DNA of 64,000 bases from Leptogorgia sarmentosa. Taxonomy: Eukaryota. Where the stretch lies: contig OZ210885.1 of NCBI GenBank assembly GCA_964658305.1, forward strand, positions 15,934,001 to 15,998,000, written 5' to 3'. Position 1 is the first letter of the stretch. Each line of letters begins with the position of its first letter. Below, in pieces: positions 21,843 through 58,315 of this stretch. A program made the translations under genes and the position numbers. The notes under the pieces are model-generated. The model made no database searches. It was not told the DNA's origin and worked only from the letters and a program-made list of their open reading frames with translations.

Positions 21843-24800
21843 TTACATAAGTGAGACAAAGATAGGCTTATGATCGCTGAAGTATGATTCTAAAACACCA
21901 CTGTTTTTCACTCTCTGAGGTATATTGGTGTAAATGTGATCAATTCGTGATTTATAATCGGTTGTCACTTGGCTAATAAGTTGTACATATTTCTTTCCTT
22001 CTATTAGGTATTTACAAAGTGTATTTTTGTCGGAAGCATTTTCATTTAGATTAACATTGAAGTCTCCAAGAATTATAACAGGAGTATTTGGATCATTTAA
22101 AAAAGTAGAATGCAAGTGTTTTAAGGCATCTATGAACCTTGAGATTTTCACTTTTGATGCAGAGCGATAAATTGCTACAATATGCAAATTATTTACCGGT
22201 TGGTTAGCCTTAAGTAACGTCATTTCAACATCATTGTAATTGCATCTTAATGGTTCTGAGATAAGTTGGACATCATTTTTTACATAAACAGCAGTTCCGT
22301 AAGGTGTTCTTGTACCATGTTGTGTGAAATCATTTCTGAATAATTGGAAGCCAGAAATTTTATATAATGCATTGTCATCGTTGCTACACAGAGCAGATTC
22401 TACAAACATATTAATATCAGCCGCTTTCACGTTGTAATCACTAGCAACATCAGCAACATGAAGATGTAATGATCTCACATTCTGAAACAGTATCTTGAAT
22501 GAACCACTTGTATCTTTATAAAGGAAAGGAATATGGCTGTTTAGTGTTGCTTCTTGTCTCAATCTTGTCATTTCTTCTTGTACTTTTTTGCTAACAGCAA
22601 TTTTATTTTCATTCATGTTCAGAATATGCAATCCCGAGATGCTTCTAAGTCTGCTAAGTGCAACATAATGCATATGTTCTCGTTTACATGATGGAAGGTC
22701 AACAACTGCTTCATTCAATGTATCTCCCTGACAACGATGAATAGTTTTAGCTGCAGATGGTCTCAAAGGAAATTGTCTGCGAAGAACTTGCATTTGGTGT
22801 CTTCTGAACTGCCTTGTGACCTCTAAAATTGGGACCCAATGTTTATCTATAGTTTGCTTGTAAAGATGAGAGTAGTCTTTGCAATAATGTTTCCCAATGT
22901 GTTCTTCTTGAAATAAAACCCAAATAATACTTGGTCTTGATGAGCCTGGTACTCGGTAATCAATTTTCTTGATAATACACTCAGCGCCATTAGTCATACC
23001 ATCAACAACCGACACGTTTGTCGTAAGATCATACTTTGCTTCTTTAAGTACAGAACAAGTTGAGTACAAGCCCATAGTTTTTGAAGGGTCGTTTGGTATT
23101 TGTTTTTTAAGTCTTTCTTTTAACTCATCAGAAAGATCTCCAAGAACAATATCAATTGCTTTTATCTGAACCTTCTCGTTTGTAGATTTGTCAAAAATGT
23201 CGTGATTATGTTCATCAACTGCCATATTAGTACTAAATAAGTGAGTTGAATTTATTGGATAATCAGGATGTTGTGGACTAAGCTTCAAAATTCTTTCTTT
23301 TAAAACTTCAATGTCAGCTTCGGTATGTTTTCCTTCTCGGATACGGTTTAATATTTCAGCAAAGTCTTTGTCTTCCCTTTGTCTCATTACTTCTGATAAT
23401 TCAAACATTTGGAAATACTGTTGCCAGAGATTAGTTGCTAACGCATTATACCCATCTTTTGAGTTTTCAAATATCCATTGATCAAAAACTGGTTTGAGTT
23501 GAAACAAGTCCCCAACCGTTATTATACTAAGACCGCCAAAAGGTTCTTTTGTTCCCATAATTTGTTGCAATCTTAAGTCAAGAAAATTAAACATCCCACT
23601 GCCTACCATTGATACCTCGTCAATAAACACAACTTGCATTCGCTGTAACTGACACCTAATTGTATTCAATCTGTCCCTATCAAGTGTGCAGTAATTGAAG
23701 CCTCTGTTTGCTGGAATCTTAAAGGCAGAATGAAGTGTATTTCCTCTTATGTTGAATGCAGCTTTGCCTGTTGGCGCTACTTTAACAACACTAACATCAT
23801 CGGGATTATTTTCTGGCTGAGCATTCAAGTATCTGATAAGAGCTTCATATAAAGCATTTGTGACAGTACTTTTGCCTACACCTGCACCTCCGCTTAAAAA
23901 CAGTCTTAATGGCAGCTTATCAGTCTTAACAGAGTTCAGTACATGGTAGAAAAACTCTTTTTGTTCGATATTGAGTGATTGCACAAGTTTTCTAAAATCA
24001 GTATCTTTCAATCTTTTCACTAGAAGTTCTTCGTCATCATTTGTTCTTGGATATATACCAATATCATTGATCAAGTCATATTCAGCATGTTGTTTATCTT
24101 TACCTGGATCAAAGCATCCAAATAATTCACTAGCTTTTGAGCCAATTTCTTTATCCTGTTCATCTCGATACTGTGCATTGGGAGCAACTACAGCACTAGA
24201 TACCTCACTTTCTATATCTTGTACTGCCTGATCAAGAGCTTCGATATGATACTCATATTGTTGTCTGTTTTGCTCTATCACATCTTTGAGAACTTCAAAC
24301 CGATCTTGGTAAGTCTGGGAGTCTTTTAGAAGATCTGTCGTTTCATTTCTCCAAGCAGTGTAAAGCATTATTTGTTCTCTGCAGAAATTTTCTGGATCTT
24401 TGTTTCTATTGAATCTAACTGATCGTATTATCCTGGGTTTTTGTCTCTTTATAAGTGTTATTCCTCCTTTCATTTGATATTCATCCTTATCAGTTGTTTG
24501 CTCCAAATCCGAAAGATCATCATCTAAATTATCATCTGCATTATTTTCTGCAAGATATACATTTGTCGAAGGTGAGTTTTGTTTAGCTTTCATCTGCTCA
24601 TTACGCTCAATTTTGCAGTTATACCATGCAACAAAATCTGCTAGGCATACATTTTCCAGTTGCTTTGGTCGTCGCTGATATCTTTTAATTATGTTGTCTG
24701 ACTCAATATCACACGAATTGTCGGGAAGTTCTTTAATCTTATCCATGCTTTTTAATAAGAATGTTCTTTCATCTGGATCGGATGTGTTGATAAATTGGAA

Positions 24801-27800
24801 TTCTCGAGAGGATCTTCTCAAAGGCATCTGGAGAACTAAGTAAACAGCTTCTTGTGCACTTATCTCAACAGCATTTAGAAACTTGTTACCAATATGTCTC
24901 ACCTTGTTAACAATATTCTTATTGCCTTCTTTTGCTTCTTCACATGCTTTACGAAGTAACTTACTCATTCCTCTCTGACCTTTAGTAATATATGTAAGGA
25001 TATAAACAGCACAAGCATAAGGATCTAGTACAAACTGAATATCCATGTTAGCTTGCCAAGCTTTGAGCAAGTTTGGATTGTAGCAGTTTATTCTAATTTC
25101 AGATGGCGATCGTTTTAATAACAGCGTACTGTGTTTGAGAGAAAGCCTTGTTGTAAAGCTGTTCTGATAAACCTAGCTTTTGAAGAAACTCAACAAAAGT
25201 CATGGTTTCATCTGCTTTGATAGAGTTTAATAACTCACGTATTCGTTCTAAAGCTTTCTTCAATATAGCCGCGACATTTTCATCAAGATCAATCACAGAT
25301 AAAGGCTCTAAAATCATAGTTCTTGGCATTGGTGGTAACGGAAAGTTAAATCTGCAAACGGCCTGACCTCTCTTCTTACACGTTTTAGAGTGCTTATGCC
25401 TTTGTAAATTTACGAGATCAGTTAAATCATCGGCGTCAGCTTTGCATGAAACATAACTATCGACAAACTCAGCAATATCTTCATCGGTATCTTTACCATA
25501 CTCAGGAGCATTTTTTATCCAGAATAAGCCATGGATATGTGGAGAACCTCTTTGCTGGAATTCGACGCGATAGAAAAAGTCAACAACTTCTCCAATTGGA
25601 TGACTTGGGCTTTTAATAATGTCGTGAATGAATAACTGTACCATATGCTCAAAATTTCGTGCACATGTGACTGGATCTTTCTGTATCAGTTCAGATTTTT
25701 TCTGCCATGTCATTTGTTTAATTTCATCATCACTATAATCTTTATTGTCTATAAGGCGGCCGAGAATTTTAATCAAATGAATCCACCGTGTTTCAGCTGC
25801 TGAAAATGAACAAAACCACGTAGGTTTACCAAGCTGGCGAATCATGGCAAATAGATCTTTTTTACACCTTTCAAAATATGGAGGTGATCCACGTAAATTT
25901 CTTAAAACTCTGAATCCTTCATCCAAATTTATTAACTTGTTGACACAACTTTCTGACTTTAAATCTCCAGCAGTGTATGTTTTACCTTTAGTTTTACACT
26001 TACGTAATGATAAACTTGCACTTCCTTGAATTTGTCTGATCTGTAATTTCTTAAGTTTGTAAAAAATGTTTGGCACAGACTGCGCGACTCTTCTATCTTT
26101 GCTTCGTAATTCCCATTTACACATTGTGCTATAATGAACAGGCACAAGTCTTTCACTGTTGTCAGCTTGACGTTTTCCACAATAAATAGTGGGAAATGAA
26201 AGAAATTCAGAATCTTTGTCTGTAAATATGCCAAGTGGTCTATTACCTTCTCCTGGTGCAAAGCTTATTATTCTATCACCATCTTGAGTAATGTCTGGTT
26301 CTTGCAATAATGTATCCATAACACCTGATGAACGTTCAGTTGTTTCACACCACTCATCGTCTGTATCATTGTCAATCAGGTCATTACTTGTATTTGTGTC
26401 AACTTCTTTCTGACTTTGTGCGTTCAAATTTTCAACAAAGTTTTCTGAAGGGTTCTTTCCATCATTGGAAATAAATTCTGCCCACTCGTTTTCATTATTA
26501 TCGACTTGATTTGGTACGTAACTATCCATTACTTGTATTCCTTCGTTTTTGAATATTTCACTGGTACGAACTAAATATTGAGCTGCTTCCAAAACTTTAC
26601 TAGGTCTAACATTCTGAAATTGATAATGGTGTTTGTAACCAAGGCGACGTTTTAATTTAATTGGAATTGTTTGTGATTCATTAATTGGTCTTGGTAATAC
26701 GCTTACAGTAGAATTAACATCAGCAGGCACATTAACTACATTTCCATGAATACTTAATTGGCCTCCTTTAGGCAGTTCTCGCACTTGCATAAAAGGTATT
26801 CTTGGCGAAATTAGCCTTTCTTCAAGAGGTGTTAAATCCTTTAAGACATCAGGCTTCTCTGGGAAACTCATTTTATTTGCCTTAGCACAAGTAGGAAGCT
26901 TGCCAGCTTTTAGGTTCGAGTGGCATGTATTACATATCCATTCAGTATTGTCAATACTTTTGAGACCAGTAAGGGATAAATTGAGAATTTCTCTTGAACA
27001 CGACTTATATAAAGAAGCATTACATTGAGTGACAGACGACCTATACCACAGCTGGTCACAACAAGTACAAATGTATTCTGGTCCAACACTAATGTTCTTA
27101 TGAAACAATTCAATGGCTTTCGGTATACTTGTTGACAACCTCGTATCATCAGAAGTTCCATGTAAAGTTGCAATTAAATTATCTTGAGAGTTACTTATTA
27201 ATCTCTTCTGTTTACTCTTATTTTCATTCTCTGTACAAGCTAGTTTTCTTTTATTATACTTTCTTTTATGAATATTTTGAACTCTTTCTGGATAGTTTTG
27301 ATTATAAATTCTGCTTGAGTTTTTAAATGATTCCACAACCTTTTCAGGATTTAAATTTCTGTATGACGCAGTAGCTCGCCTGCTAGATTCTTTAACTTTT
27401 TCAGGATTAATATGCATGTATGTTGCCTTGGCTCTCTTAACCTTCTCAGGATTTGATTTTCTGTTCGTTGCACTAGCTAGCTTTCTAGATTCTTTAACTT
27501 TTACAGGATTATTATGCATATATGTTGCAGTGCTCGTTTTAGAGGATTCTTTAACTTTCTCAGGATTTGACTTTCTGTATATTGCAGAGGCTTTTTGCCA
27601 AGATTCCTTAATTTTTTCAGGGTTTGAATTTTTATAGTTTTTATTATAAGTCTTTTTTCTTTCAAGTTCTTTCTTTTTGAATTTATTATGTTTTCGTCTC
27701 TCTTTCATATATTCTCTGATATATTTTTTCCTTTTGTCTGAATTTTTTACATTAGATTGACAATTCCGTGAGTTTGATGTGGTTTTAGCACTTGTCGTCT

Positions 27801-29649
27801 GATTTGTTTGTACAGAAAAAGATCGTGTGATAGGCGTAGTTGATACATAATGCAGTTCATCAAGATGACCTATGTAAATATCTCTCGCATTTCTCCCTTC
27901 AGGCTGAGTATAAATAGAGCTTACAATCGTTGACTCAGAAAAATTTAGTGCAGTTTCCGTGATATTAATTCGTAATTGATTCGTATTAGCAACTGCCTGT
28001 ATAATAATATGGTCTGCCCAAGTGCCAAGTGTCGACATATTTCGTAAATATTGCATCCATGATTGATCAGTGTTATATTCCACGAAATGTTCTGGACAGT
28101 TTATTAAATGTTGGATTGCAAGAGCTCGTATTTGTCGATGACGATCTTCAGTTCCGTAAAGTTGGTGACTTACACTACGAAAGAAGCAATTACCGTCACC
28201 TACAATGTTTACTGGCCTTCGTCCTATGCGAGCTAATCTTGTCGTCAACACTGACATATCTGAAGTATTTACAGGACCTGGATTCAACTCAATATCACCA
28301 CACACAAATAACAAACATTTATGAGACGTTTTTATTCTTTGCATATTGCATTTATTTGTCTGAACAATCTTAGCATTATTTAATTTAAACAATTTGTGTT
28401 TTCTTGTTCTGCTAGTATGCTTGTTAGTAATTATCAAACTTCTTTTAAGATATACATTCTTTGCAAACTTAGTAATTGTTGGCTTCCGAAATTGCCACAT
28501 GTTCGTATTTGTAGGTTTATGAATTACATATTTACGGTATCTTGTAGAGAGCAAATTATGCCAGCATGATGACTTAGGAATGAACTGCTTTATAAAACTT
28601 TTAATTCTACGCCTTCTTGTTTTATTTTTGGTCATTAAATGAACAAACTTTTTCATAGGAATTCTAGACGGTTCACGATCACGCTTTCTAGCATGTTTTG
28701 AATGTCTCATACATCGTGATCTACTTCGATCGAAAACGTAGGACTGATTAGAAGTCAGGTGCTTATTTTGTATTGTAAACGTGGATAAAAGTTCACCTTT
28801 TATATTCGGATTATAATCATTATTTAGCTGTGAACTAGCATCAATTGTTTCTTCTACATAATTGTGATGTGCTTTTAAAATACAAGTGTCATTGACCTTT
28901 GACAGTGTATTCCCAAGGTCATCGGCAGTTTGACAAATATTAATTAGCGTTTCACATAAGCATAGTTGTTTCACACATACAATTTTCATAGTTTCAGATA
29001 AGTTCACATAGTTTCTCATTAGATTTGATAATTTTTCACAAGATTTTAGCAGTTTCTCTTTCAATGGAACACGATTTTGCACCGTTGTGCTAGACCTGTG
29101 CACAAGGTCCGTGTCGATAACACGTGGGCTATCTCCTTGCCGTTTTCCTCGATTACATAAGGCTCGCTGGCAAGTGAAGCGAGTGGCGATAACACGCTGG
29201 CTATCTCCTTGCCGTTTTCCTCGATTACATAAGGCTCGCTGGCAAGTGAAGCGAGTGGCGATAGCACGCTGGCTATCTCCTTGCCGTTTTCCTCGATTAC
29301 ATAAGGCTCGCTGGCAAGTGAAGCGAGTGGCGATAACACGCTGGCTATCTCCTTGCCGTTTTCCTCGATTACATAAGGCTCGCTGGCAAGTGAAGCGAGT
29401 GGCGATAGCACGCTGGCTATCTCCTTGCAGTTTTCCTCGATTACATAAGGCTCGCTGGCAAGTGAAGCGAGTGGCGATAACACGTCGGCTATCTCCTCGT
29501 CTTTTGCTTTTGAATATAGCCCTCTGACGAGTCAAGAGGATTTCACAAATCGCGCAAGGTTTGCACTTCATCTTCTTCGACAAACAACTTGTTCTATGCC
29601 AAGTAACACAAGTCACAAATGATCTTGTCTGACAGCCGTATTGATTCAT
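21843..29649 (-). CDS. Helentron polyprotein OTU protease - Zn finger - HUH Rep - PIF1 helicase - AP endonuclease, one frameshift near 25100-25150
   Basis: OTU: GDGNCFFRSVS...HY. Rep: PTWFCSFSAAE, VEFQQRGSPHIH, HKHSKTC, CRFNFP. Helicase: SGGAGVGKS, FIDEVSM, GDLFQLKPV, TIHRCQG, YVALSR. EEP domain: FQNVRSL, ILGDFN, IDHIY, SDHKP. Confidence 0.93.
29115..29497. repeat. 72-bp tandem repeat (~5.3 copies) in the Helentron 5' region
   Basis: Period 72 (GCGAT at 29186, 29258, ...). It reads as a 24-aa unit RVIATRFTCQRALCNRGKRQGDSQ in the Helentron frame. Confidence 0.95.
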
Positions 29650-32339
29650 ATCGATCAGCTAGCCAATCATATTCAATATTCGCAGTGTGTTGCGCACATG
29701 CTGTGGTTGTTTATATGAACTTTGTCACCTCACGCAGCGCAAGTGAAAAATGTAATTTCCATATTTAGCGAGCCAATCACGTTCAATTATCCGAGCATGC
29801 TTTACACGTGCTATACTCGTGCGTATAACATGTCATTGAGATAAAATGCGTAAAAATTACAGGATTAATTACTTCGTTCGCGAAGCGCTTCGATTAGTTC
29901 GATGCATGTGTTTTACACCACTCATGTCTTACTCGCTACTTAACTCTGGTTTGTATAATTGAATACACTCACGACTGTGTCGGTGGTCAATGAACGCTCG
30001 AGTAAACGCGCGTATCGGCGTATGATGCCAACGAACGAGCTTGACACGTTTCAAAACGGCATGAATACTAAATCTAATTCGTATCTAATTATATCAGTGT
30101 TTGCTGTTTGATAGATGTATTCTTAATACTGTATGTATATTAGTAACGATGTAACCACTGACAAGTGTACCCTCATGCCAGACGGCAAACTGAAAATGTT
30201 TGCACATTTATAATATCCACGGCAGTAGTTGATAGTATGGGCTATGGCTATTTTTGTTCGTCACAAACCTATACATGTTTTCTAGATTCATCGCAGATAT
30301 TCAATTTACATTTTAATCGCTTTGGCAATATATTCACACATTGTCGAAACTTGCATGGCCACATATTACTGATTCAATGTCGCACTCCTTAGCGTCCGCC
30401 ATATTGTGTGCATAAATATTTCATCACCCGAACACGTGCTGACTTGCAATTTTCGAAAAAATCGAAATTCCGGAGGGGTTTTGTGGCATTGTGTACTATA
30501 ACTTGAGGCATCTTAGATCACATTACTTCTCTAGCTAACTTTCTTATCCATACGAATAACTTCAAACAATGATGAATAATAGTATAACGTTACAACTGGA
30601 TAAGATTTGTTCAAACATTGTAACGATATAAGTCAACTAAAGAGTTTCGCACATCAGAGAATCTGGGATACACCCCCCGGAAAGTTTACACTATGACTGA
30701 ATGATCCATGACTGATGTAAATTTTCGCCACTCATCACAATACTGCAAAGTTAAAACTTTGCACTAAAAATGTGGTATTTCAGTTAGTTAGCATTTGTAG
30801 TAGTTTTAATTTCGTCTTTTTTGCATTAACAGTTGTCAAGGCAAGTTCAAAATTGGATGTGGATGAGCTGAATGGGGATAGCACTTTCATCAACATACTG
30901 TCAGACATTGGAAACACTTCAATTTTATCTAAGTACAGTCTAACCGGTACCTATAGTATAAACATGGTTTTATCTAGTAATATTTCAAGGTGTGACCGTG
31001 TGAGTACAACTGTATTACCATTAAGTTGTTGTTCTTTTCTTTTAGCTTGAAAACAAGAATGAAATTGTGCAATGCATATTGTGCCATTTTGTTTTAAATA
31101 AACGTAAAGTTCTTCTGGACCAGTTGAAGGAGGGCCTTAAAATAAATGGTCTTTTGGACGAAATAACCGATCATCCTGACATTTTGGCACCATTGTTCAC
31201 ATGGACAGAGAATTTAGTGAATGCCAGTATTGTCAAAAGTAAACTCAGATTCCCTCCCTTATGTGGTGACCATGTTATGAAAGTTATGCTTCTACATTTC
31301 ATTGATGAGAGCAGTGAACAAGGTTAGTTACCACTGAACTCTCTGTCAGTAATTTGTGATGAATTTAGTTAAGGTTTTTTTCATTGCTTACACATTACCC
31401 AGAGTTTGCCACCAGCAAGGTATTAGCCAGGATTTCAATTGCTGAAATGTGGGCATGGCTACATGGTTTTTGTGGGCGTGGTCACATGTTTTGGGCGTGG
31501 CCTCGATTTTTTGTTGTCGTGGAATTGTGGTGTTCTACTAATTGAACCTTCTCACATTTAGTTTAGTTTTTTGAGCGTTTGACGCATCTTATAGCAATCT
31601 TTACCGTAAACTGTAAGTCTATAACTCTAAAACATGCAATCTCGAGGGGTAAAGCGATTGATGTTTTTTATGCAAGAATCAAGTAATTTTCATGTGAGAA
31701 TCCTTGAAATGTATGTTACAAAAACATTGCGCATTTGCCTACACCCCAGGTATACACTTCAAATTAGCCATGTTCAATGTCTTTTCGATGGGGAAAAGTG
31801 TGAAAACATATACAATGTACCATTAGTAAAGTAAACAGCAGAGGACAACAATTTGGAGTATTCAAGAAATTTTACAAAGCTTGTACTCAGAATGGTGCTA
31901 ATATTATTGGCTAATTCTTAATTTGTCATTTGTTTCAGAGCTTGAAGATTTTTTGGCATTTACAACTGGTGCTGTTGGTGTCACAGCTGTAGTGTCAATT
32001 GATATAAAATTTGATTCAACAGAAGGGGAAATTTTTGCTTCAGCTTGCACAAAAACCTTGCACCTGCCAAATCATGTTCCATTTTATGACCAATATAAAG
32101 AAGCCATGCAAACAGCAATAATGGATGATAGCCCATCATTTAATTCTCCCTGAAGGCCTGAATCAATAGACAAAACTATGAAACAATATGTTGCATTTGG
32201 TATTGAAATTCTTTGTGTTCATCATCATTGGTCCATTTGGTTATCTTTTTACCAGAGGCTAGATATATATCATAGAACAAGTGTTATGTCAACGCATAAT
32301 GAAAGTACAATTATGATTTGAAAACAGCTTAATTAATCA

Positions 32340-34212
32340 ATTTAATTAGGATCTTTGAATAATCTCCACCTTTACTTGTATTCAGTACCTCTATATTGAT
32401 GCTTGCAGAGAAGCCAGGACATCCAAGAGAATATCAATTCCATAGTTATCACTCTGTCTGGTTGGATTAATTAATTGTACAAGCTCTTGGTATCTTTCTC
32501 TGGAACATGGGTTGTTTGTGGGAGGAACAACAATGTTGTTTACTTCATCTGACTCTAATGGCACAGGATCGTCATAATCAATGCCATATGATTCTAAATC
32601 CTCCTAGATTAAAATTCAGTAATCAGTCAAGTGGACAGTCTGCTACTGAATAAATTAATTTAACCATGCACCCACTGTCAACCCTTTGAACTGCAGTGTG
32701 CTCCACTTTTGGTGTTTTACTGTCTGTCAGACTATTTTACTTGTCAAGTGGAGAGAGCTGCTGCTCAATGAGTGATTTTGTTTGATTAAAACACTCAATT
32801 TTCAAATTACTGATCAGATTTTATCATACTTACCTCCGGAACATTCCAAATAATCTAATTCAGTAAAACCATTTCCACGCATTCTTAGTAAGCCAAGGAT
32901 GTACAGCTGCATAGGTGTACGGTTTTCAGCAGTCCTAATATGGTGGTGAACATATCCTGCTTTCCAAAGGTCAAGATGATTATTTATTCTTGGCACATCA
33001 ACAAAATGCAATGCAAAAAAGTGCATTTCATTTGTTAGGTCAATAATTAAGGAATCTTCCAAGTGATAAAAGAGATGGTAATATATATATATATATATAA
33101 AACTCCATCAAAGACATCCCTCCATAATCGCTCAATCCTCTGATTGTGCACACTTTTGCCCACAATCATACTACCTCGACCTGGGCCTCTTAGTGGATGA
33201 TTGAGCATGAATATTGACACAAGGACATTTTCACCACCTTTGTCAGATCTTATTCTTGATGTTAATCTGTATTCGGCCACAGCGTCCTGAAACAATTGCA
33301 GCACGGTATCAGCTTGATTATTTGTACTACACTTCAAGTATACTGGTATGCGTGTATAGCCATCAACCCCTCCATGCACTACAATCCTCCATCTATACAA
33401 TTGAGATAATTAAGCATATTTTCATTTTGTACACTTTAAGCTTTCCATAAAATATGATTGATTTATAATTAGAAATTAATTACCGAATGAGTTTGTGATT
33501 GCCATCTATATGCCATAAGGAAAGAGGACCTCTAACACTGTACACCTGTCTAGGAGTGATTGACATCCATCTCATCGCCACACACCTTCAGGATCAGTCC
33601 TGTGCAATGAATCTCTAACTCTTGCCTGAGTGACTCTTATTGATCTCGACCTCAGCACAGAATAAATTCTTCGATATCCAGCATTTGGAAATTGTTCCTA
33701 CACACCTCTTACAAGTTCATATCAGTTAAGGCAGTGTTTTGGTCGCTTCGGATGGAAATACCATATTCTCTAAGCCGCCTTTTTATTGTACTTTGAGACA
33801 CTCCAAGGACATGTGCAATGTTTGGTACTGAGATGTCATATTCAAGCATATAGACCAGTTGTTCCCTGGTGATCACAAATGTCGGTCTTCCCACTGAGTT
33901 GCTTGTGGTTTGTTCTAAGATGCTTGGAAAAGATCTATTTTGTAAACTTAAATTTTGAAGCAAAGAAATAACATCTAAAATAGCATGAAAGGTTGTGTTA
34001 AATCTGTTGCCCATTCGAGCCAAGTGACCACATATTTGTTCTAAACGAAATATAACGAAGTCTAAAACGTTCTCGTCTGGGCTAGACTGCAATCTTCTAG
34101 AAAGATCAAGAAGGGTCTGTCTTAATCGTGATGAATACAAATTTACAACATTTGCCTCCGCTATTTTGTTGAAAATTCTTAGCATAATTAAATGAAGTTT
34201 TGATAATTTCAT
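32340..34212 (-). pseudogene. IS3EU-type integrase (unit 3), multi-exon, frameshifted
   Basis: GRPTFVITREQL and HTH IAHVLGVSQSTIKRRL, then [13 protein letters not shown]|intron|[21 protein letters not shown] and [15 protein letters not shown] frameshift falls in the (TA)n near 33080-33100. It is convergent with the HECT gene ending at 32153. Confidence 0.88.
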
Positions 34213-34307
34213 TATCCTCCCTCGAGATCTGTGGGCTCAATTCACCAAGGTTGCAAGACATTATCAAAGAATTTATATAATCGACGAATTCATTAAAAAT
34301 TGTTCTA

Positions 34308-34880
34308 CAGGGTGTCTCAAAAAAAAGGTAATCGAACTTTGGCATGCCATTGTGCGTTAATTACTGGGTGTACAAACGTGATTTTTGCATGGTCATAAAG
34401 ATCAAGGTCTTAGCAGTTGAATGACCTATTTCTTGTACGATATGGAAGAAAATCAGGCAAATGCGAGCGTGTTGAAAAACGCATTCTTTCACCTCTGTGC
34501 CTAATTAAAGCAGTGCATAACAAAAGAAAAATGCAATTCATCACGAATGTGTCATGGTAACAAAGATTTTATCAGAATTATTAATAATTATGCATAATCA
34601 GGTCGATTGTTGAAGGGAAGGTCGTCATCTTCGAGTCCCAGAGGGAGTTAATTTTGAATAAGTTTAGCTGCAATTCTCAGAGGTGAAAGAATGCGTTTTT
34701 CACCGAGATTTTTCAACACGCTCGCATTAGCCTGATTTTCTTCCATATCGTACAACAAATATGTCATTCAACTGCTAAGACCTTGATCTTTATGACCATG
34801 CAAAAATCACGTTCGTACACCCAGTAATTAACGCACAATGGCATGCCAAAGTTCGATTACCTTTTTTTGGAGACACCCTG
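34308..34880. mobile_element. Tc1/mariner-type MITE with ~170-bp TIRs and TA TSD
   Basis: TA|CAGGGTGTCTC...GAGACACCCTG|TA, with a long inverted match between 34308-~34478 and ~34711-34880. Confidence 0.92.
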
Positions 34881-36324
34881 TATAGTTACGTTTCGACAAA
34901 TTCGAATAATTAAAGGAATTTTTATTCGATAAATTCATGTATAAACGGCAAATTGTTATCCTTCGCGTAGAAATATCGATAAATTTACAACAGTATATTT
35001 TGAACCTAAAAAAGCGCCATACACCTCTTCCATGGATAATTTGCCAGACACCCTTTCTATTATAACAACAAAACCTTATAATTTAAAATATGAATGTTTT
35101 TGTTGACTTGATAAATTATTTAAATTTTTTAGGTTGTAATGTACGCATAAATTTGTTACAGCAACATCTTGGTTTTTGGAATATTATTTCATGAACAAAA
35201 TAAATACTTTCCTTCAAGCCCACTTTCAAATAACCCCCCCCCCTTATGATAAGTGTACATGCAAATTAGAGTTAACATCTATATAGCTTCCTCTGTGTGC
35301 TACTTAATAAAGTTGACAATTGTTTCTTTATGATGCAGCACCATAAGACAATAGGTCAATACGTACCTTTGTTTTCTTTATTGTAGAAATGCCTTCTGCA
35401 GAATTACATGAATAAATAAGATCTGGAGTCACGACTGGTTGCATTTGACGATCATGCATAATTTGTCTCTGTATACTTTCATCATCAACCAAGATGCAAT
35501 TTATAGAGCAAATGTTATGCAAAACAAAACATGCATATATCACATATGGGACATTTTCCAACTTCAAACTCATTCTGGTATTTAAAATTTGCCATCTGGC
35601 CTTCAAACAACCAAAAGCGCATTCGATTTGGTTTTGTGACGACCTTAACAAATTATTAAAAATAACCTCCTCATTGGCATTGCAAGTAGCAAATTCATTC
35701 ATACAGTACGGTACAGGGGCGGATCCAGGAGTGATCAGATCAATCACGCGACTAAGGTAAAAATCGGCCATAAAATTAATGAGTTAAATTATCAATCTTC
35801 GTGCAGTGTCTTGCCTAAAATGTTCAACTGTCCAGTTCTGAAATATCATCCAGTAGTTTAGCCTTCGAACATGAACAAGCAGAAAAGCGGTCTTACGCAT
35901 GAGTTTTGCGCGATTTAGGCCGATTCTAGCCATCTGATTGGCTGTGCTCAAATTTTGCACGATTTGTGGGGAGTCCTAATCGATGGAGTGATCAGGGGCA
36001 GAGATATATGCTTGCCCATCCCGGACAAAAATATCAATGAAACAATCAATGTCGATACGTCAATTCTGAAGTCGATATGTCAAAAATTCGAAGTCGATAT
36101 ACTTTGGAATCGAAGTTGACACATTAATATTGAAGTTGATGTATTCAAATATCGAATTCGATACGATTTGAAAAAATTCAAGTCGAATCTAAGATCATCA
36201 TAGGTCGACTTGATATAATTACGGAAGAATAATTATCATATTTCGACTCGAAAAAAATTGCCATGTATATGTATCATGTTACAATGTATACATTTACATA
36301 ATCATCATAATGTTTTTCTGAAAA

Positions 36325-37919
36325 ATGGCGACAAGATGGCTACCCAACATAGAAGAGTTTTTTGAATCATATTGTCGCGTGTTAACTGACGGTGGGAATC
36401 TTGCAGATGTAGAAGATGACAGAGCAGATTTTTTTGCCAGAAGAATTGAAGATTATGAGCAGACTGTACGTGTTTTAGCTGCAAGATTACTGGAAGCTAT
36501 ACCAAATGAACATTTATTGCATAATAATACATCACGACTTCTTCATATATCTGCCGATGTGAGGGCCAGATTACAAGATCGTGTTATGGAGCGAGAAAAT
36601 AGAGAGCTTGGACCTTTAGAGGAATCATTCCAAGCCCCAGTTGAACGGTCGGGTGTAAACCAAGGAAGGCCACGATTTGCTGTGAATGGAACAGACGCAA
36701 ACGACCTTCGTCGTTTAGGATTTTCGTGGGTAGATATCGCTCGAATGCTAGGTGTTTCCCCTAGGACACTCCGCAGACGGCGCCATGAGTCCTGTACCTT
36801 CGACGAATTTGGGTATTCTGACATCACTGATGCAGAATTGGACAATACCGTAAGAGGAGTTCTGCAGATCACTCCCCAAGCAGGACGAAATCTTGTTCGT
36901 GGAGCACTTCTTAGTCGAGGATTGCGTATACAAAGAAGACGTATAGAATCATCAATCTCCAGGGTTGACCCTGTCACAACTGCTTTAAGTCATCGAAGAA
37001 GAATAATCAGACGAATTTATAATGTCCCTTGTCCAAATTTCCTCTGGTAAATATATCAAAATGTTTATTTAATAACAATATATTGGCACTGTACTTATGC
37101 ATATTTATGATGAATGCGTTGTTTTATAGGCACATCGATGGGAATCATAAACTGATTACACCATACCGTATTGTTATCCATGGCGGGATTGATGGATATT
37201 CCAGGCTTATTGTATATTTACATGCGTCTAATAATAACAGAACAAACACGGTTCTTAGATTGTTCCAAGATGCTATTGCGAATTACAATATTCCATCTCG
37301 GGTAAGATCGGATTATGGAATGGAAAACATTGATGTTGGTAGATTCATGCTAGTTAACCGTGGGTTGAATAGAGGAAGTTTTATCACTGGGAGCTCAGTC
37401 AGAAATCAGAGAATTGAGAGACTGTGGAGGGAGACCAATCGCCTTATAGCTAGCCGATTTGTCAATATATTTCTCTACTTAGAACAGCAACATGTTTTCA
37501 ATCCTGATAATGAACTCCATCTATTGACGTTACACTTGGTATATTTGCCTCTTGTCAACAATGCTTTAAATGCATTTGTTGAACAATGGAACAGTCATCC
37601 AGTTACTTCAGCTTGCAACTATACACCTACACAACTTTGGGTGAGAGGATTGGTTGAAAGTCGAAACACAGATTGTTCAGCTGTTAATGATGTGCTTGTA
37701 GACAGGCAGGATTTTGAAGGTTTGGGTGTTGAGGAAGATGGACCAGTACCACAACTACAGTCTAGCAATAGTGTAGAAGTAGCAGAAATACCATTTCAAC
37801 TCACACAAGAACATGAATTGAGCGTGTTGGAAATCAGACAAAGATATTCAACAGATACAAATGGAATAACTTGTTACCTACAAGTTCTGCAATACCTTTC
37901 TTCTATTTTAGACACATAA
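36325..37919 (+). CDS. IS3/IS481-like DDE integrase, 2 exons (36325-37046, 37130-37919), apparently intact
   Basis: [27 protein letters not shown], and W|HIDGNHKL (D), [10 protein letters not shown] (D), [10 protein letters not shown] (E). An 83-bp GT-AG intron restores the Trp codon. Confidence 0.92.
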
Positions 37920-38299
37920 TATACAACACACATTTTGCATTAACACAGTACAGGGCCATTGTTAGAAAGAACCATTATATATTCATGTGTATATACATTC
38001 ATATATTCATGTTCACATGCCATACAAAATGCCGAAGAAATTTTTTGCTTTCAAAAGAAATTAGTAATTTAATGCAGAACATGAATATATAATTATCCAA
38101 TTATCATTGTAGTGATGGCCCTGACACTGTATTTCTAACTAAACAGTTTGTTGTAACTACAATCTTGTATTACATTACAGTTCATAGAAAGTAAACACTT
38201 TATATACTGTCGGAACATAACAAACTATTAAAAGATAACCTAAAACTATTTCCAGAATTAAAACTGTAAAAATGCCACATCACATCCCATAATAATCAG

Positions 38300-41200
38300 C
38301 TAAACTAAATGAAATCCTTCGGATTCAAACCACAATGCATTGTCCATATGCTTTTTGAAATTATCATAGGTTTCGTGGCATACTGGCAGGGTTAATACCC
38401 TTGGGCATGTTGCAGCTTTTGGCATCACTTTTGATTTCTCAGTATGAAACTCTACCTTGATCTCTCCAATTTGGGGCCTACCGGTAGCAAACATGCACAA
38501 ATGGCCAAGAGTTACCTTGCTATTCTCTAAAAATGGTAATACAAGTGCATATTTAGCATTTACATATTTACCAATACTGAGGAAGATAGCTAGCATTGGG
38601 AAGACAGCTAGCGTTGCAACAACTTATTTATTTAAATAAATAAATAAGTAAATGTTTTGTTATACAGTAACTTACACAGCTATAGCGCCATATAGCATGT
38701 GAAAATATGGGCGTTGCGCTTTAACACTTGCTATAATATATACTGGGTTGCAATGGATATACAAATATATTAGCGATAAATACAACAAAACATTTCACTG
38801 AAATACTTTTTAATTATCACTAATCATTACCTTTAGCACATTCATCAATGTATGTAGACAACCATTTAAAAGCATTTTCATTCTCTGGAATACCCTCGTA
38901 GTGAATTGGTTCAATTTTCAGCATTCCTTTTAGTATCGATGGATCAATTGCCAAAGCTTTGGATGTAGGGAATACAACAGATACCAAATCAGGGCAAGCT
39001 GAGAGCAATTTCTGCAATGACAGAGTATCCATTCCTTTTGCAATATCTGCCATTTCACTCGCTCGTTTTCTCAAAACTTCGTGCATCATGATTTGTTCAA
39101 CGGCTACATGTGCATTCTTGCCACTTAATTGCTGTCCGACAAATCCAGCCGAATCCAGTAAGGTGAGCACTGTTGGGTTTTCATATAACTCCATAAACTC
39201 GGTGGTAGTTGATGCTTGCAATATCTGAAGCAGTTAGAATTTAAAACAATTTTAACCAAGTACTCAACAACTGTCATTGGTCATGAATTGAACCCACTTT
39301 TGTACTTTACCAAGAATATGTGCTGCAAAAGAATATGTACTACAAAGACAACCATCATAAGTAAATACAATGACAAAAAGAAGACTGCTTTTCAACATTT
39401 TGGGCTAGCTACAGCAGCACTCAACGTTCAGGAATTTAACTTGTTATATTAACAATACCTTTTGGGCATACTCTCTATACTCCAAATCAGGAATGTCCTC
39501 TATAGTAACAAGTGTAGCAGCCTCGTCCATGGATCTAGTTGAAATATATTTTGCAACAGATGGAGCCATCCCTACAAATCCCATCCCACCATGGAGAATA
39601 GAGTGGGCAAGAATCTTTCCAAATAAATGGAAGAGACCATTGTCCAATGATGAACAGCAATGGATCGGAACAATGTGATCTGCCACTCCTTCAAAAAGTG
39701 AAATACCAACACTTGGATCCCCATCCCTTAGTTTCATTAGCACCAGATGGAAGAATTCTTTGGTTAGACCATCACCGTCAATTCCCATTTCATTGTTGAA
39801 ATCAATGTCTGGGGTGAACTTGAGGTTGAATCCATGTCTTTTGTAGATGCGAATCACATCTCGTACAAAATTTTGGAGACTGCCTATCAATGTGAATGCT
39901 TTGTGTAGCAGTTTCTACCATTTGCTGCTGATAGGACCGTAGAGCTAAAAGAGAATTTTTAGCTGATAGAAGGGGCAAGTCTTCATGATGGAAGTCATCT
40001 TCTGCCGAGGATTGATCTGTAAAAAATGCAATTAAACCCTGAATAAAATTGTATTTCTCATGTTAACCCATTAAGCTCCAGAGCTTCCATCAGTAAAATC
40101 ACCTGCAGTTTGTCAAACAAGTTTGTTTGAATGTTTATTGTACATTTCATTGAATCCTTACCAGACAAATCATGGTGGCTTTCAAGAGCTGCATCAAGGA
40201 TGTCATTAATTGCATCATCTAGATTTGTATGTCTTAATGCAGCTCTTCTCAACTCTTCAGCATCTTTTCCAACAAAGATCTGTTGCAACTTTTCTAATCT
40301 TTCTTGGAAACCAGAGGAAAAATCTTGAAGAGCACTATCACCTTGTTGAGATGAGGTACTTGCCTCTTCGTTAGAATTTGTGGCTGCTAAAGACGGCAAT
40401 ACAGCTGGCAGGTATGTTGGAGTTTCAACATCACAATTTTCAACATCGTCTTCTCTGACGTCTGTCGTAAACCATTTACTAATCTCGGGCAATTGATCAT
40501 CCGGGCTTTTCTATAATGAAAATAAATTCAAATTCACATACTGTAAAATGGTGTCAATTATAACCAGAACATTTTGTATTAAAAGATTCTGCACTGTATT
40601 TGCTTTCAATCTTGTGGAATTCTATACTTCATCAATGCACAGTTATAACTGCTGCTTAGCTTACCTGAGTATCAAGCACTAACTCCTCCAATGTCCGTAA
40701 GTAAACAGGTCTAGCACCAGTAATATGCTTTAGGATTTTACCATCCAATTGCTGGCCATGTGGTAGATTAATAGGAACAATGCATGTTCCTGCAGCTTTT
40801 ACAAATTCAAATCTATGGAAGGTAATTAATTACATGTTTATAATTAGCCCCTCTTCAGAACATGTTGTTCAAATGCACAAAGTGAAGTGCAAATATGAAT
40901 GAAACAAATGATATACTTGTGAATGATAACATCTCTCAGTCTGACAAATAAAGAGGTTGGGATTTTATATAAATTGATATACTGAGTAACATACCCTATT
41001 GATTCGTATTCACCCAGCAACACTTTCGAGAATAACTGTGAAAACTCTGTTCTAAGTTCCTCATAATTCCACCTTTTGTCGATAAGAAACGCGTCTACAA
41101 CAAGATTTTGCGTCTGCAGAAACATTTTCTTTTCCCTCCTCGGCACGGTTAACCATGTGGGACTTGGCAAAAGGAACACGTTCTTCAGGTATTTGGAATT

Positions 41201-41578
41201 AGCATCACTTGATTGCGTTCGACTACGCTTCCCTGACTGTGTGGCAGTTTGTCTAACAATTTGACGTTTTCTTGGCTGATTAATCCTGCCATAATTTTGC
41301 CGCGAATTGAAGTTCATGGCAATACTTCTTTGGTCATTCGGTGCGGACCGTGCGGTATTTAAATTACCAGACGTCAACGGCATATTTTCGTGAGGAATCC
41401 CACGAGGGATACGCAACATACCGTTCAGTTCTTGATCAACGCTGTCGAATCTGTTGCCCGTGTTTGAAACAACAGTTTCCAGGGGAGAATTCTGCTCTTG
41501 GGACATCAAATCTACGACTATTGTGCGCACTAAGCGCTGGAGATCTCCCGAAGCCGAAGCTTGTGTTTCTTCCGCCAT
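38300..41578 (-). CDS. HECT E3 ubiquitin ligase (G2E3-like) with a CUE-like domain, about 6 exons, apparent +1 frameshift near 39872
   Basis: CUE-like ERLEKLQQIF...NLDDAINDIL. HECT motifs FNNEMGIDGDGLTKEFF, LFEG, GKILAHSILHGG and FATG...PKAATCPRVLTLP (catalytic Cys), ending ..EGFHLV. Confidence 0.88.
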
Positions 41579-42873
41579 TTTGCGAACTATATTGTATATA
41601 AATTATAATAAGCGCGCCAAAAAAAGATTATGATGATTATGTAAATGTACACATTGTAACATGATACATATACATGGCAATTTTTTTCGAGTCGAAATAT
41701 GATAATTATTCTTCCGTAATTATATCAAGTCGACCTATGATGATCTTAGATTCGACTTGAATTTTTTCAAATCGTATCGAATTCGATATTTGAATACATC
41801 AACTTCAATATTAATGTGTCAACTTCGATTCCAAAGTATATCGACTTCGAATTTTTGACATATCGACTTCAGAATTGACGTATCGACATTGATTGTTTCA
41901 TTGATATTTTTGTCCGGGATGGGCAAGCATAGAGATACCGGCTTTTCAATTGGCTAATTCAAAAAAGTTCTCAATTTCTATTGGCTGAATTTTTTTGATC
42001 GATCAAGCCGCTCATTGCTAATACTATGCACGCACTGCACGGAAAGGTCAGGTCCTTTCTGATCGCTACTTGGCCGCGCAAGCTACAAACTGCAAAGGTT
42101 AACATATTCGAAGTGATATCAGAAAATTTTTGTTCAACAATGTCAGCCAGCATTTACGAAACTGTAAAGGCTGCCTTAGAGAAGAACGATCAGCAATATC
42201 TTAAAGATATTGAAGCTGATATGAAAAAGCAAGTCAATGACGTACCGAAGCGTATTATTGATGAATTGTTGGGTGCTGTGTATAGCAATAGCTTCTTTCT
42301 CGCACGGAATTTTGGAGCAGAATCGTACATTCCGAAGCATGCTCAAGAAAAGAAAAAGTTCTGCACGGCCTTAAGGTAAATATACTTTATTATTCTAACT
42401 AAAATAGCATTATAGCAGTCGATTAATACATGTCTTACGCACATGCTATGATATGAATTCGGCGTCACCGCGTCAGTACGCCACACACATTATAATAAGA
42501 TGAAATTTACATAATATCATATCATAATTTACATAAATACAGCGACTTTATACAGGCATTTCAGTTTGTTTATACTTTGTTTCTGCCTCGTTTACTTTGA
42601 TATATATTTACTATAATATTTATCTAGTGTAAACTACAGGCCCTGAAGCACATGGCTATGTGACAAAGCTTTATGTAGTATGACCTCTACAGCATGTATA
42701 ATGGTAGATGCAACAAGATGTTGCCCACTGCCCAGTGCCATTCAGACTGATTCAGTGTCACCATTTACTCATTGTTTTTCCGGGCTATGTATTAGAGATA
42801 CAAGGCAGCTGTTTTAATACTTTACTAGTGAATATTTTGGAATCCCAGCTGATATATTATTTTATATTTTAGA

Positions 42874-45800
42874 TCTGATGTTACTGGAAACTGCTTGTAT
42901 AGTTCTGTGTCCTTGGTACAAGTAGGTAACAATAGTCTGATGCAGTCATTAAGAGTTTTGACATCAGAGCTTTTCACCAATGCGGAATTTTATTCTGAGC
43001 ACCCCTGCTTCTCTTCTGTTGTCACTGACCATGCTGAGTATTTCAGCAACGTTAATAATATTTTTCCAATGTGTGTCACTCAGGAGTGTTTGGATACAGG
43101 TTGCATTAAAGCCAACCTGGTTAGACAAGAGGCCATTATTAATTGCAATGAGAAAAAGTGGTCATCCTTTCTTTGCATATTGGGTCTTGCTTCTGTTTTA
43201 AATAGGAATATATTTACCTATTATCCTGACTGTGGGGAGCCAAGATTTAAATTGTTGTTTAATCGCATGATTCAACCATGTTTAACTTTAAGTCCAAAGA
43301 AAAGTATAGATAATCTTCACATTCTTTTTTGTTATGAAGGTACTGTAGCTTCTGGAAGAACATTCCAGTCAAATCATTTTGTCCCTCTTCTTTTTCCTAA
43401 ACAGCAGCTAAAACGAAAACCTGTAGCTGCCACTTCCCAAACATGTACCAAGAAGCAAAAAGTATCTGCAATTCCTCCCAAAAAAGCCACAAATATTACT
43501 AATTTTTTTAATGTAGCTGAGAAGTCTGTTTTTAAGCCCAAAGCCCACAACATATTACATTTAGATCCAAATAAACCTAGCACTTCCACAGAGATAAAAA
43601 GCACTGTTTCTAGAACAGGTGAAACACCTATTGCAAAACAGGTAAAATCATCTAGCACCAATTTTGATGTTGCAATGTTCCGAGATATGGTCAAGGGAAT
43701 GAACTCTTCTGAAATTTGCAACCTTATTAAAAATGTCTTTAGGCCTGACAAGAATTATTTTTTTCCTAAGACAAATGGCAGAAGCTTTAGGTACAGTTGG
43801 CTGGAATTATATTCCTGGCTCTGTTATTCACCATCAAAAGATGGTGCATTCTGCTTGTCATGTGTTTTGTTTGGAGATCGTTTTCCTGGTAAATCTAGCA
43901 AAATCCATAATTTATTTTCTGAGCCTCTGCGTCGTTGGAGTGGTGCAGCATATACTTTAAAAAATCATGCTGGACAGGGTTTGAGTGGGGAAATGGGACT
44001 GCATGCTTGTACCTTTCCTATATTGACATCTTTACTTTCCCAAATGTCAGGAAAAGCACAGCCTATAGAGGTCATTTTGGATAGCAATATCAAACAAGAA
44101 GTTTAAGAAAATAGAAACAAACTTGTTTCAATTGTAGACTTGGTAGTTTTTTGTGGCCGTCTTGGTTTACCATTACGTGGTCATCGTGATGATGCTAAAT
44201 ACCATCCGGAGGCTGGCAGTTACTCTACGGGGGGAGTTGGCAATTTTATAGAATCTCTTAGTTTTAGAGTCCGGGCTGGGGACAAAGTTTTGGAGAACCA
44301 TCTGAGAAATTGTGGTAAAAATAAGAGTTATATATCTAAGACTAGCCAAAATAAGATTATTAGGTGTTGTGGTCTAGTGATCAGTGACCAGATCATTCAA
44401 GATGTTAAGGCTAGTAAGTTTTATTCTATAATTGCAGATGAGGCTGCAGACTCCTCTCACAACGAACAAATGTCTCTCGTCTTACGTTTTGTAGACGTTG
44501 ATTTGAATATTAGGGAAGAATTTATTGCTTTCCTACAGTGTAGGTGGGGACTAAGTGGCGAGCAACTCGCCAAGTTGATTTTAGATGCCCTTAATGAGTT
44601 AACTCTATCTATTGATGACTGTTGGGGGCAAGGTTACGACGGTGCAGGTGCTGTTGCTGGGCATATCAATGGTTTGTCAGCTAATATTTTACGTCTGAAC
44701 GAAAAAGCCCTTTACACACATTGTTATAGTCATCGACTCAACTTAGCTGTATGTGATTCGTTGACTGTTGTTGAGGTAAATACTATGATGAAACATGTTA
44801 AAGATGTATCAAATTTTATTAATATCTCCCAGACACGCAACATACCTTTTGAAGAAAATGTCCGCAACTATTCTGAAAGGGAAAGTCAGAAGAGACGGCT
44901 GGTAGACGTTTGTCGGACTAGATGGGTGGAGCGTATTGCTGGTTTGGATACATTCATTGAGCTGTTTGTCCCTTTATATGATACTCTCAAAGAGATGAGA
45001 GATAATGTTGAAGGGAGCTATAGGCCAAACCTTGTCACTGATGCCTCTAATTTTTTTGATCTTGTCACAAAGTTTGAGTTTATTGCAGCTTTGGTCATTT
45101 CTCAGAATGTTCTTGATTGCCTTCTCCCAGTAACGTTATTACTACAGGGAAAGAGTATTGATATTATGGACGGTATTCATTTAATTAACACCACTAAAAA
45201 TGATTTCACTAACTTTAGAAATTCTATCGATTCTTACCACGATATTTGGTATGCCGAGGCGTTGGATTTAGCAGAGAAGGTCGAGGTAGAAGAAAGCAAA
45301 CCACGGACTGTTGGGAGACAAACGACTAGATCCAATCCTCCATATAAGTCAATCTCCGAGTATTACAAGCGTACCATAACTATTCCTTTAGTAGACCATA
45401 TTAATTTAGCTTTACAACACAGATTTGACATCGACAGCGTTAACGTTTATAAAGGGTTAAGCGTTGTGCCGACCAAGATGATGACTTTGAAAGAGAAAGG
45501 GCTAGATTGGCGGAATGATTTTAAAATTGTTACCAATTTTTATATTGACGATTTGCCTTTCCCGTTAGCTTTAGATGCAGAACTGTCACTTTGGACAAAT
45601 TATTGGGAGACATGTGAAGGTCCCCTTCCTGACAACATTGCCACAACTTTGAAAGCTATAACCTTTGATGGTTTTGAGAACATCAAAGTCATTCTTCGAA
45701 TTTTAGGAACTCTTCCCATCACTTCTTGTGAGTGTGAAAGAACCATTTCGGCATTAAGAACACTTAAAAATTACCAACGTAGCACAATGGTTGAAGAACG

Positions 45801-45906
45801 GTTAAATGGTCTAGCCCTAATGAAGATTCATCAGGAGATCGTCCCAGATATCGAAAAAGTAATCAATAAATTTGCCGTTGGAAACACAAGGTCGACATTT
45901 ACCTGA
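42874..45906 (+). pseudogene. hAT transposase (PRKRIR/ZMYM1-like: TTF Zn finger, DUF4371-like, dimerisation domain) with an N-terminal vertnin/OTU-like domain; one in-frame stop at 44104-44106
   Basis: TGNCLYSSVS...NHFVPL (OTU-like), WLCYSPSKDGAFCLSC, LRGHRD, IIADEAAD, GQGYDGA, HCYSHRLNL, TRW and PITSCECER...RLNGLALM. The two ORFs share one frame. An upstream exon near 42139-42375 is possible. Confidence 0.9.
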
Positions 45907-56900: not shown

Positions 56901-58315
56901 ACCGAATTCTTCGCCGTTTTAGGAGCACTGCGAAATGAACAGCAACACCACAGGCTAATGGCATGTGCTCGCTGTGCAAATTGTTTATTGTCAATGGACG
57001 ATGATCTACGAGATCATGGGAACTATGTTACACCATATGCTTTTAGGCATATTCAAGACCAAGCGAAGATTTCTAAAATGGTAGAAGTAAATAAAAAGTT
57101 ATCAGACGATACCTTTCTCATAATCAGGCATGACCAAACATGTGCGATTGCTTCGCCAGTCTCGTGCCAGTGCAACTACCCTGCAAAAATTGGACTGCCG
57201 CGTCGCCATATTTTTAAAGTTAGACAACTCTTGAATATGAGTCGCTTTGATGAATCACTGGTTTTGGACCGATGGAAGAACGCTTATGCTAACAATTCAG
57301 AACAATATGCTACAACGGAACTCTGCAACATGGAAAGTGATAGCACAAATGATGCTTATATCAATGTACAAGATGAGGTATCTCAGAAAAAGATCTTGTC
57401 AGAAGCCCAGAAGTACAAGAAAGCTTTAAACATGGCTCAAGCATTGGCATCCGTGCCAAGTAAGGTGGGATGAAGACTTTTAATGAACGAATGATGCAGA
57501 TGCGGGCATTACTTGAGTCATGGCAGACTGGGAAACCATTTAATTTAATTGATACAAGCCTGCACAGTATTCCAAGTAATGTTTCTGCAAAAATCGATAA
57601 GCTGTTTTCTGAAAGTGTTGATACTGCTTCTCCTGACAGAGATAACAGCGAAGTCACTCCTAAGACAAGCCTGCAAAGTGGTGAAAACCAGGCAGACGTT
57701 AAAGATACGTTGCAGGGAACACAACCTACTAGAGATGAGAAAAAACAGATGGATATTGTGGATGACGATGCGTCCGAATTCAGTGAATTTGCAGATGTAA
57801 GGATGCCTCCAAAAATGTTGAAGAGAGGAAGGCCTAAAGGTGCCGGTTTGACCGTTATTGGACTCCCGAAAGTAAAGAAGAGAAAAGTTGACAGCAGAAA
57901 TCTAGTACCGTTTGCCAAACTGAAACCAGAAGAAGAGGACAGACTTCTTTTGGAATGCTTTGTCAGCCCTTTAACTGCAAAACAAGCGCTGAGTGGGGCG
58001 CAAATTCAGAATTGTACAATAGAATCAAATCCTCTTAAGATCCCTGACTTGGCGAGGGATGAAAGTGTTGTCGATATCAATCGAATTGAAAAGTATTTTC
58101 GAAATGAAGAATGGTTGAGAGTTTTGGAAGCTTTAACAAAGAAGAGAAAATTTCCTTGGATCTGCTCAGGATGTACAAAGGCAATAAAGAACAGTCAAGA
58201 CAGTGTTGCTTGTGAAAGATGCTTGAACTGGTATCATTTTCCTTGTGTAGCTTTACATAAGAAGCCAAAAACAAAAAATTGGTTTTGCTGGAATTGTAAG
58301 AGTAAATACCAATGA
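53996..58315 (+). pseudogene. Ulp1/C48 protease - MULE transposase - SWIM - PHD polyprotein with frameshifts near 55760-55840 and 57470
   Basis: C48 protease: NRWL, HWTM..D...YCDTLG, FQTCGNVCG. MULE: MVDATYKL, ISDKD, CLFH, TNNHLESIN. A SWIM-like CQC...PRRH, a KRGRPKG AT-hook, and PHD CSGC...CERC..WYH..C...WFCWNC. Confidence 0.88.

Follow-up and report, generated by a model that had tools for sequence, protein, structure and literature searches.

In a 64-kb stretch of the Leptogorgia sarmentosa genome (64,000 nucleotides of contig OZ210885.1, hereafter the window), we found a transposable element at 36007..41931 in which a gene for a HECT-type ubiquitin ligase faces the transposase gene. The element is complete, with both ends and the target-site duplication present, and is almost certainly a DNA transposon of the IS3EU/GingerRoot type. 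Comparison with related loci indicates that the ligase is very probably an accessory gene, which is under selection and travels with the transposase. Judging from its conserved residues, the ligase family is probably catalytically active. The reading frame of the ligase in the window copy itself is broken.

Pairing of the ligase with the transposase

An alignment of 38 transposases served to collect relatives: of the 557 metagenome stretches that were confirmed, the best 80 were taken, together with 14 contigs binned as prokaryotic. These loci (L numbers below) were selected by the transposase alone. For HECT, profiles were started from the protein of the window, iterated on the same loci and checked against Pfam and PDB. 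All 93 loci with a core call were counted; L094 was dropped. A HECT gene convergent with the transposase was present at 44 of the 93 loci, and at 40 of the 54 that have at least 1.5 kb of sequence downstream. Among loci whose flank reaches 2 kb or more, it was found within 2.5 kb downstream at 35/45, or in 21/29 clusters at 85% identity. Within the same distance a HECT gene was found downstream on the same strand at none of 45 loci, and upstream at 2/28 and 1/28, depending on the strand. At L014 the HECT gene lies in tandem, further downstream. An earlier sequence-only reading of the window had proposed that integrase and ligase are parts of one transposon, and the presence of the gene in most related families agrees with this. 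In these relatives the ligase architecture is conserved at full length and not reduced to fragments.

Among the 39 loci of at least 5 kb, four complete HECT-bearing elements with TATG..CATA ends were identified (L019, L026, L067 and L086). Each has its own 6-bp duplication, namely TTTCCC, CGCTCG, CGGATC and CTACAC, respectively. L019 and L026 represent one family at two sites. For the long loci L028, L066, L068, L071 and L074 no terminal inverted repeats (TIRs) were found, and the viral contigs that were scanned yielded no relative. We also observed that L067 is inserted into GGGGCGGATC sequence, resembling one at window position 35717. At the low-GC (22-28%) loci L038, L054, L059, L075 and L078 a related HECT gene lies upstream of the transposase and does not face it. 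The contigs L081-L094, filed in bacterial or archaeal bins, carry eukaryote-type elements, including the complete, spliced-looking L086, and are likely host DNA in prokaryote bins.

Whether the HECT sequence evolves neutrally was a further question raised by the sequence-only reading, and the comparison between families answers it in favour of purifying selection. Between-family values of the ratio of nonsynonymous to synonymous substitution rates (dN/dS, by the method of Nei and Gojobori; with saturation of dS in four pairs or segments) ranged from 0.07 to 0.27 for the HECT gene, on par with the transposase. For the window element and L001 the ratio was 0.07 for the HECT gene (pN 0.165, pS 0.727) and 0.07 for the transposase, values that are approximate because dS is near saturation. 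The pair L033-L051 gave 0.19 and 0.24 for the HECT gene and 0.215 for the transposase, and L004-L007 gave 0.27 for the HECT gene. The most conserved part between window and L001 is the C-lobe of the HECT domain, with 82% identity and a pN of 0.10.

Moreover, quick trees built from 30 elements have a number of supported clades in common between HECT and transposase, including one with eight members, and the distances in the two trees are correlated (rho 0.30; 0/5000 permutations). Some supported conflicts between the trees suggest that HECT modules have been swapped between distant transposases (L027/L033/L034, L002 and L032).

Structure of the element and of its two genes

The features of the element are listed with window coordinates and strand.

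36001..36006, no strand: left target-site duplication GAGATA; present once at the unoccupied site of run X5
36007..36320, plus: left TIR of 314 nt, starting with TATG, with internal TCGA-rich subrepeats
36325..37046, plus: transposase exon 1, helical N-terminus and helix-turn-helix (HTH_23, E 5e-5, below cut-off)
37047-37129, plus: transposase intron, 83 nt, GT-AG
37130..37919, plus: transposase exon 2, DD34E integrase core (PF24764, E 4e-69; D244, D302, E337)
38300..38526, minus: ligase exon 6, HECT C-lobe with the catalytic Cys codon at 38405-38407 and a Phe four residues from the end
38831..39224, minus: ligase exon 5, remaining HECT N-lobe
39459..40016, minus: ligase exon 4, where the HECT N-lobe starts; holds the frameshift
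39866..39874, minus: +1 frameshift in an A/T run; the product stops at 431 aa, upstream of the HECT domain
40162..40510, minus: ligase exon 3, low-complexity linker and degenerate CUE-like repeat
40665..40812, minus: ligase exon 2, predicted second half of the ubiquitin-like domain
40995..41578, minus: ligase exon 1, N-terminal helix, basic stretch and predicted first half of the ubiquitin-like domain (fold from homologue L008)
41618..41931, minus: right TIR of 314 nt, ending with CATA
41932..41937, no strand: right target-site duplication GAGATA

The arms of the TIRs are 99% complementary, with three mismatches in 314 nt (arm positions 282, 306 and 312), and from this similarity the insertion looks recent. 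Inverted ends had been noticed before at a length of about 305 bp; the ends stand, and their measured length is 314 nt. The perfect GAGATA duplication described in the same reading is confirmed at both sides. A contig from run X5 contains the left flank up to 36006, one GAGATA and then the 30 letters that are found after the right duplication. By its sequence this contig represents the unoccupied site, which may be the other allele or, given that the flank is a deep repeat, a paralogous copy of that host repeat. The element is nested in this high-depth repeat (35328-36006 and 41932-42060), beside a Harbinger-type DDE_Tnp_4 fragment. In run X6 the same element end is joined to a different flank, which therefore indicates another insertion site.

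The transposase reading frame is open (503 aa, two exons, one intron) and begins with a helical region of about 100 aa before the helix-turn-helix. It has an IS3-like DDE core without an HHCC motif, and the closest named transposase is that of the octocoral Dendronephthya (84% identity over 53% of the query). Thus the intact IS3/IS481-type DDE integrase seen by the sequence-only reading holds. IS3EU/GingerRoot elements are defined by TA..TA (TAY..RTA) ends and usually 6-bp duplications (PMC10045372), and described IS3EU elements encode two proteins (PMC8232023, citing Kojima 2019). The window element shares all of this with the elements of PMC10045372, PMC6839031 and PMC8232023: it has TATG..CATA TIRs, a 6-bp duplication, the IS3-like core and two convergent genes, the second of them frameshifted. 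The core of IS3EU-1_CVi, given in the supplement of PMC10045372, has the same motifs around all three catalytic residues in a comparison by eye. The assignment to IS3EU made from the sequence alone was hence correct. TIRs in the present family measure 314-400 nt, as against 100-150 nt in clubmoss GingerRoot. IS481EU was considered and rejected, since duplications of 4, about 15 or about 25 bp are described for it in parabasalids (PMC10045372), in contrast to the 6 bp found here.

The ligase gene, described as convergent and spliced in the sequence-only reading, lies on the minus strand (41578-38300) and is predicted from splice sites, open frames and alignment to homologues to comprise six GT-AG exons. 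Together they encode 752 aa with an X at one break. This break is the +1 frameshift, owing to which the HECT domain is not translated in the window copy. The homologues P0001 (88%) and P0002 (74%) cross the same spot in a single frame. A contig from X1 is identical to the window over 38719-41375 without a gap, and X2 agrees at the frameshift; X1 and X2 are one sample, possibly the source of the window itself. In a contig from another study, X7 (n=1, depth 6.7, compared over 39747-40200), the site is bridged with one base fewer. Contigs from X4 and X5 are gap-free at the frameshift and have fewer than 31 letters on one side, so they were not counted, and X6 gave no contig across the site.

Because X1 and X2 agree with the window and the X7 allele is one base shorter, we judge on these contigs that the frameshift is real and polymorphic, and that the two genes do not form an intact pair in the window copy, contrary to the earlier picture. 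An assembly error was rejected as its cause on the same contigs. Alternative splicing that skips the frameshift was rejected as well, since P0001, P0002 and L001 conserve the skipped segment in frame. The element had been described as self-contained; with the frameshift in its ligase, it is not a self-contained working pair.

Singly, the HECT exons of the window fall below the Pfam cut-off (E 0.11 and 0.0028). Among 20 open reading frames (ORFs) examined, Pfam HECT was above cut-off in eight, below in four and without a match in eight, mostly partial exons. A profile of 21 rows including the window exons matched solved HECT ligases in PDB (E 8e-21); the alignment extends over some 330 positions and includes the Cys motif (pub2). 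The model of the L033 HECT domain, which is encoded in a single exon (mean predicted local distance difference test, pLDDT, 88.5) retrieved HUWE1, pub2, Smurf2 and E6AP with Foldseek (E 3e-12 to 1e-11, TM score up to 0.67). The HECT assignment is thereby borne out by both profile and fold; the retained Cys codon is likewise confirmed. The E2-binding part of the N-lobe aligns to pub2 with gaps. The catalytic Cys is kept in 50/54 C-lobe matches, which span about 40% transposase identity; the four without it are two broken pieces of L094 and two matches ending ahead of the motif. HECT domains follow a '-4 Phe' rule, and among the 46 matches scored (8/54 were excluded) 32 have F and 11 have M as the residue four from the C-terminal end.

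The ligase family's N-terminal region contains a conserved domain of about 120 aa, which was absent from the earlier description. The model from L008 (pLDDT 89) was compared by VIA-align and Foldseek, and the listed matches were nearly all ubiquitin-like, RBD or UBX folds. The scores were middling (best Z 6.8, root-mean-square deviation 3.6, 86 residues aligned; best Foldseek E 0.01). Based on this model the domain is predicted to be a ubiquitin-like beta-grasp, an assignment at the level of the fold; searches of Pfam, PDB sequences and the Atlas gave no named family. By eye, a basic stretch precedes it in the sequences viewed. CUE domains (PF02845) are three-helix repeats with a motif of the MFP type. 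The CUE-like domain proposed earlier scores above the Pfam cut-off in the relatives L008 and L002, but is weak in the window, where the segment is degenerate, has no Pfam match and reaches E 4e-4 with a probability of only 35% in HHalign against a CUE set.

Candidate roles of the ligase

The best explanation for the ligase, which we hold tentatively and at somewhat less than even chances, is an active E3 enzyme acting in trans on a host nuclear factor involved in silencing or chromatin. The DD34E enzyme would cut and paste the element at its TIRs, leaving 6-bp duplications. The HECT Cys would receive ubiquitin from a host E2 enzyme, the CUE domain would bind ubiquitin, and the basic stretch may direct the ligase to the nucleus. 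Substrate selection could be the task of the ubiquitin-like domain or the N-terminal helix. The host nuclear factor would then be tagged for removal, so that the element is expressed and mobile. If the ligase works in trans, a copy with a dead ligase, such as the one in the window, can still persist or move.

The chemistry of ubiquitin transfer by HECT enzymes is established (PMC6457168), and a fish 'G2E3-like' HECT protein was described as an active K48 ligase (PMC13623101), its kinship to the window family being an assumption. Provided that the ligase is active, its main target is in our analysis somewhat more probably a host factor than the transposase. The step is proposed because the modules appear to have been swapped, because some families are without the gene, and because in fungal IS3EU elements a kinase beside TET takes this position (PMC12730594).

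Several observations weigh against an active, host-directed ligase as a regular partner of the transposase. The ligase of the window copy is truncated, although the insertion looks recent. A convergent HECT gene is missing from 14 of the 54 loci with 1.5 kb or more of downstream sequence, and no HECT was found at L024, L025, L045, L082, L083 and L093, although their flanks measure 4-9 kb; none of 37 ORFs lying downstream of transposases without HECT had a Pfam match. The N-lobe of the near-identical pair L002-L003 has a dN/dS of 1.37 (interval 0.36-4.0; 11 changes), a value that is expected if copies drift after insertion. The near-saturated dS of the window-L001 comparison belongs here, too. 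Human and mouse G2E3 HECT domains have been reported as non-functional (PMC3673628), and a divergent HECT domain therefore need not be active. Moreover, the correlated trees would also fit a role directed at the transposase.

Such a role, in which the ligase holds down the amount of transposase of its own element or marks the spent transposase-DNA complex to be taken apart for gap repair, is a possible but doubtful alternative. The broad co-inheritance of the two genes, with the eight-member clade and the correlated distances among its signs, is in its favour, and the helical region ahead of the helix-turn-helix may provide a docking site. Yet HECT modules appear to swap between distant transposases, some families do without the ligase, and fungal IS3EU elements hold a kinase in its place (PMC12730594). 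More improbable is a non-catalytic HECT domain, which would soak up E2 enzymes or ubiquitin, or serve as a scaffold, thereby shielding the transposase from host ligases. While the reported state of the G2E3 domains (PMC3673628), the low Pfam scores and the gapped E2-binding part would suit such a decoy, it is hard to reconcile with a Cys retained across distant transposases, with the hydrophobic residue kept near the C-terminus and with a C-lobe that is the best conserved part between window and L001.

Passively captured host cargo, or a gene kept for the benefit of the host, is largely refuted and in our estimate very improbable. Clubmoss GingerRoot elements do carry host gene fragments (PMC6839031), the window copy is broken, and related HECT domains are joined to fibronectin repeats in hemichordate gene models. 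However, the gene occupies a fixed convergent position in 21/29 families and never lies nearby on the same strand, its dN/dS equals that of the transposase, and its architecture is conserved at full length. The active E3 enzyme aimed at a host nuclear factor remains our leading candidate.

Known transposons offer partial parallels. Ulp1 proteases are carried by Mutator and CACTA transposons. An OTU domain is carried by Helentrons (PMC6431247). These elements also have an enzyme of the ubiquitin system aboard, but one that removes ubiquitin or SUMO, whereas the enzyme described here is predicted to add ubiquitin. The TET-bearing fungal IS3EU elements likewise have a second enzyme gene opposite the transposase, TAYGG..CCRTA ends and 6-bp duplications (PMC12730594). 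Their cargo, in place of the ubiquitin ligase, is an alpha-kinase and a TET dioxygenase, the latter carried by some of the fungal IS3EU elements, and an anti-silencing role has been proposed for the TET demethylase (PMC12730594). With G2E3/GL-Metazoa (PMC3673628) the family has a highly divergent HECT domain in common. Unlike G2E3, it shows no RING/PHD-like zinc fingers (no Pfam match in the window exons, L008, P0280 and P0278), and has the ubiquitin-like fold and CUE instead, with the Cys kept. The term 'HECT' is absent from the main text of the transposon papers searched for it, including PMC10045372, PMC12730594 and PMC8232023, as is 'transpos' from the available text of the divergent-HECT survey PMC3673628. 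Our full-text searches retrieved no paper that links HECT with IS3EU or another TIR transposon; Repbase and Kojima 2019, which lie outside this scope, could already mention HECT.

Neighbouring elements and 'G2E3-like' gene models

The window contains further remnants. A decayed IS3EU-like element at 3107-7055 has transposase fragments on the plus strand (PF24764, E 7e-36) and a convergent HECT on the minus strand (Pfam E 2e-4) with the Cys kept. A third element at 31046-34236 has its transposase on the minus strand (PF24764, E 1e-41) and convergent HECT exons on the plus strand, again with the Cys. At 19267-20583, on the plus strand, there are an orphan CUE above the Pfam cut-off and a broken HECT N-lobe, and no neighbouring transposase was seen. 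For none of these three remnants could TIRs be located. An element at 34306-34882 resembles a miniature inverted-repeat transposable element, with arms of 174 nt (97%) and a related partial copy at 59075-59362. Two long minus-strand ORFs (1519 and 1109 aa) at 21843-29658 resemble by eye, as we assume, a Helitron/Helentron Rep-helicase with OTU and endonuclease parts. The ORFs at 7292-7873, 10064-11509, 44107-45906 and 55725-57473 are presumably, also by eye, a tyrosine recombinase and piggyBac, hAT and Mutator transposases.

At an E of 0.001 or lower, the HECT N-lobe profile retrieved 873 clusters (50% identity), among which ordinary HECT proteins may be included. Two of ten clusters checked are named 'G2/M phase-specific E3 ubiquitin-protein ligase-like' in RefSeq, and another of the ten contains 'uncharacterized' RefSeq models from Orbicella (Orbicella protein XP_020612464.1), with a cluster representative that is 92% identical to the cargo of the L064 element family. 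The suggestion that genes annotated as 'G2E3-like' are often this cargo hence receives some support. In the hemichordate RefSeq models P0213, P0224 and P0253 fibronectin III repeats are joined to a related HECT domain, possibly by domestication or by fusion of gene models.

More speculatively than the role proposed above, the HECT protein could be the standard second protein of one large IS3EU branch in animals and in some low-GC, possibly fungal, relatives. It would be an anti-silencing E3 enzyme directed at the destruction of a host repressor, and among the lineage-specific 'G2E3-like' genes of invertebrates many could be mobile cargo or domesticated from it. The finding gives an identity to the unexplained second protein of a widespread and little-studied transposon superfamily. 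In corals and other invertebrates, some HECT models labelled 'G2E3-like' or 'uncharacterized' appear to be cargo of transposons, and expansions of host E3 genes would be overcounted through them. If the proposed role is true, a DNA transposon would disarm its host with a ubiquitin-adding enzyme in the manner of a virus, and the substrate of this enzyme would reveal a key silencing factor of animals.

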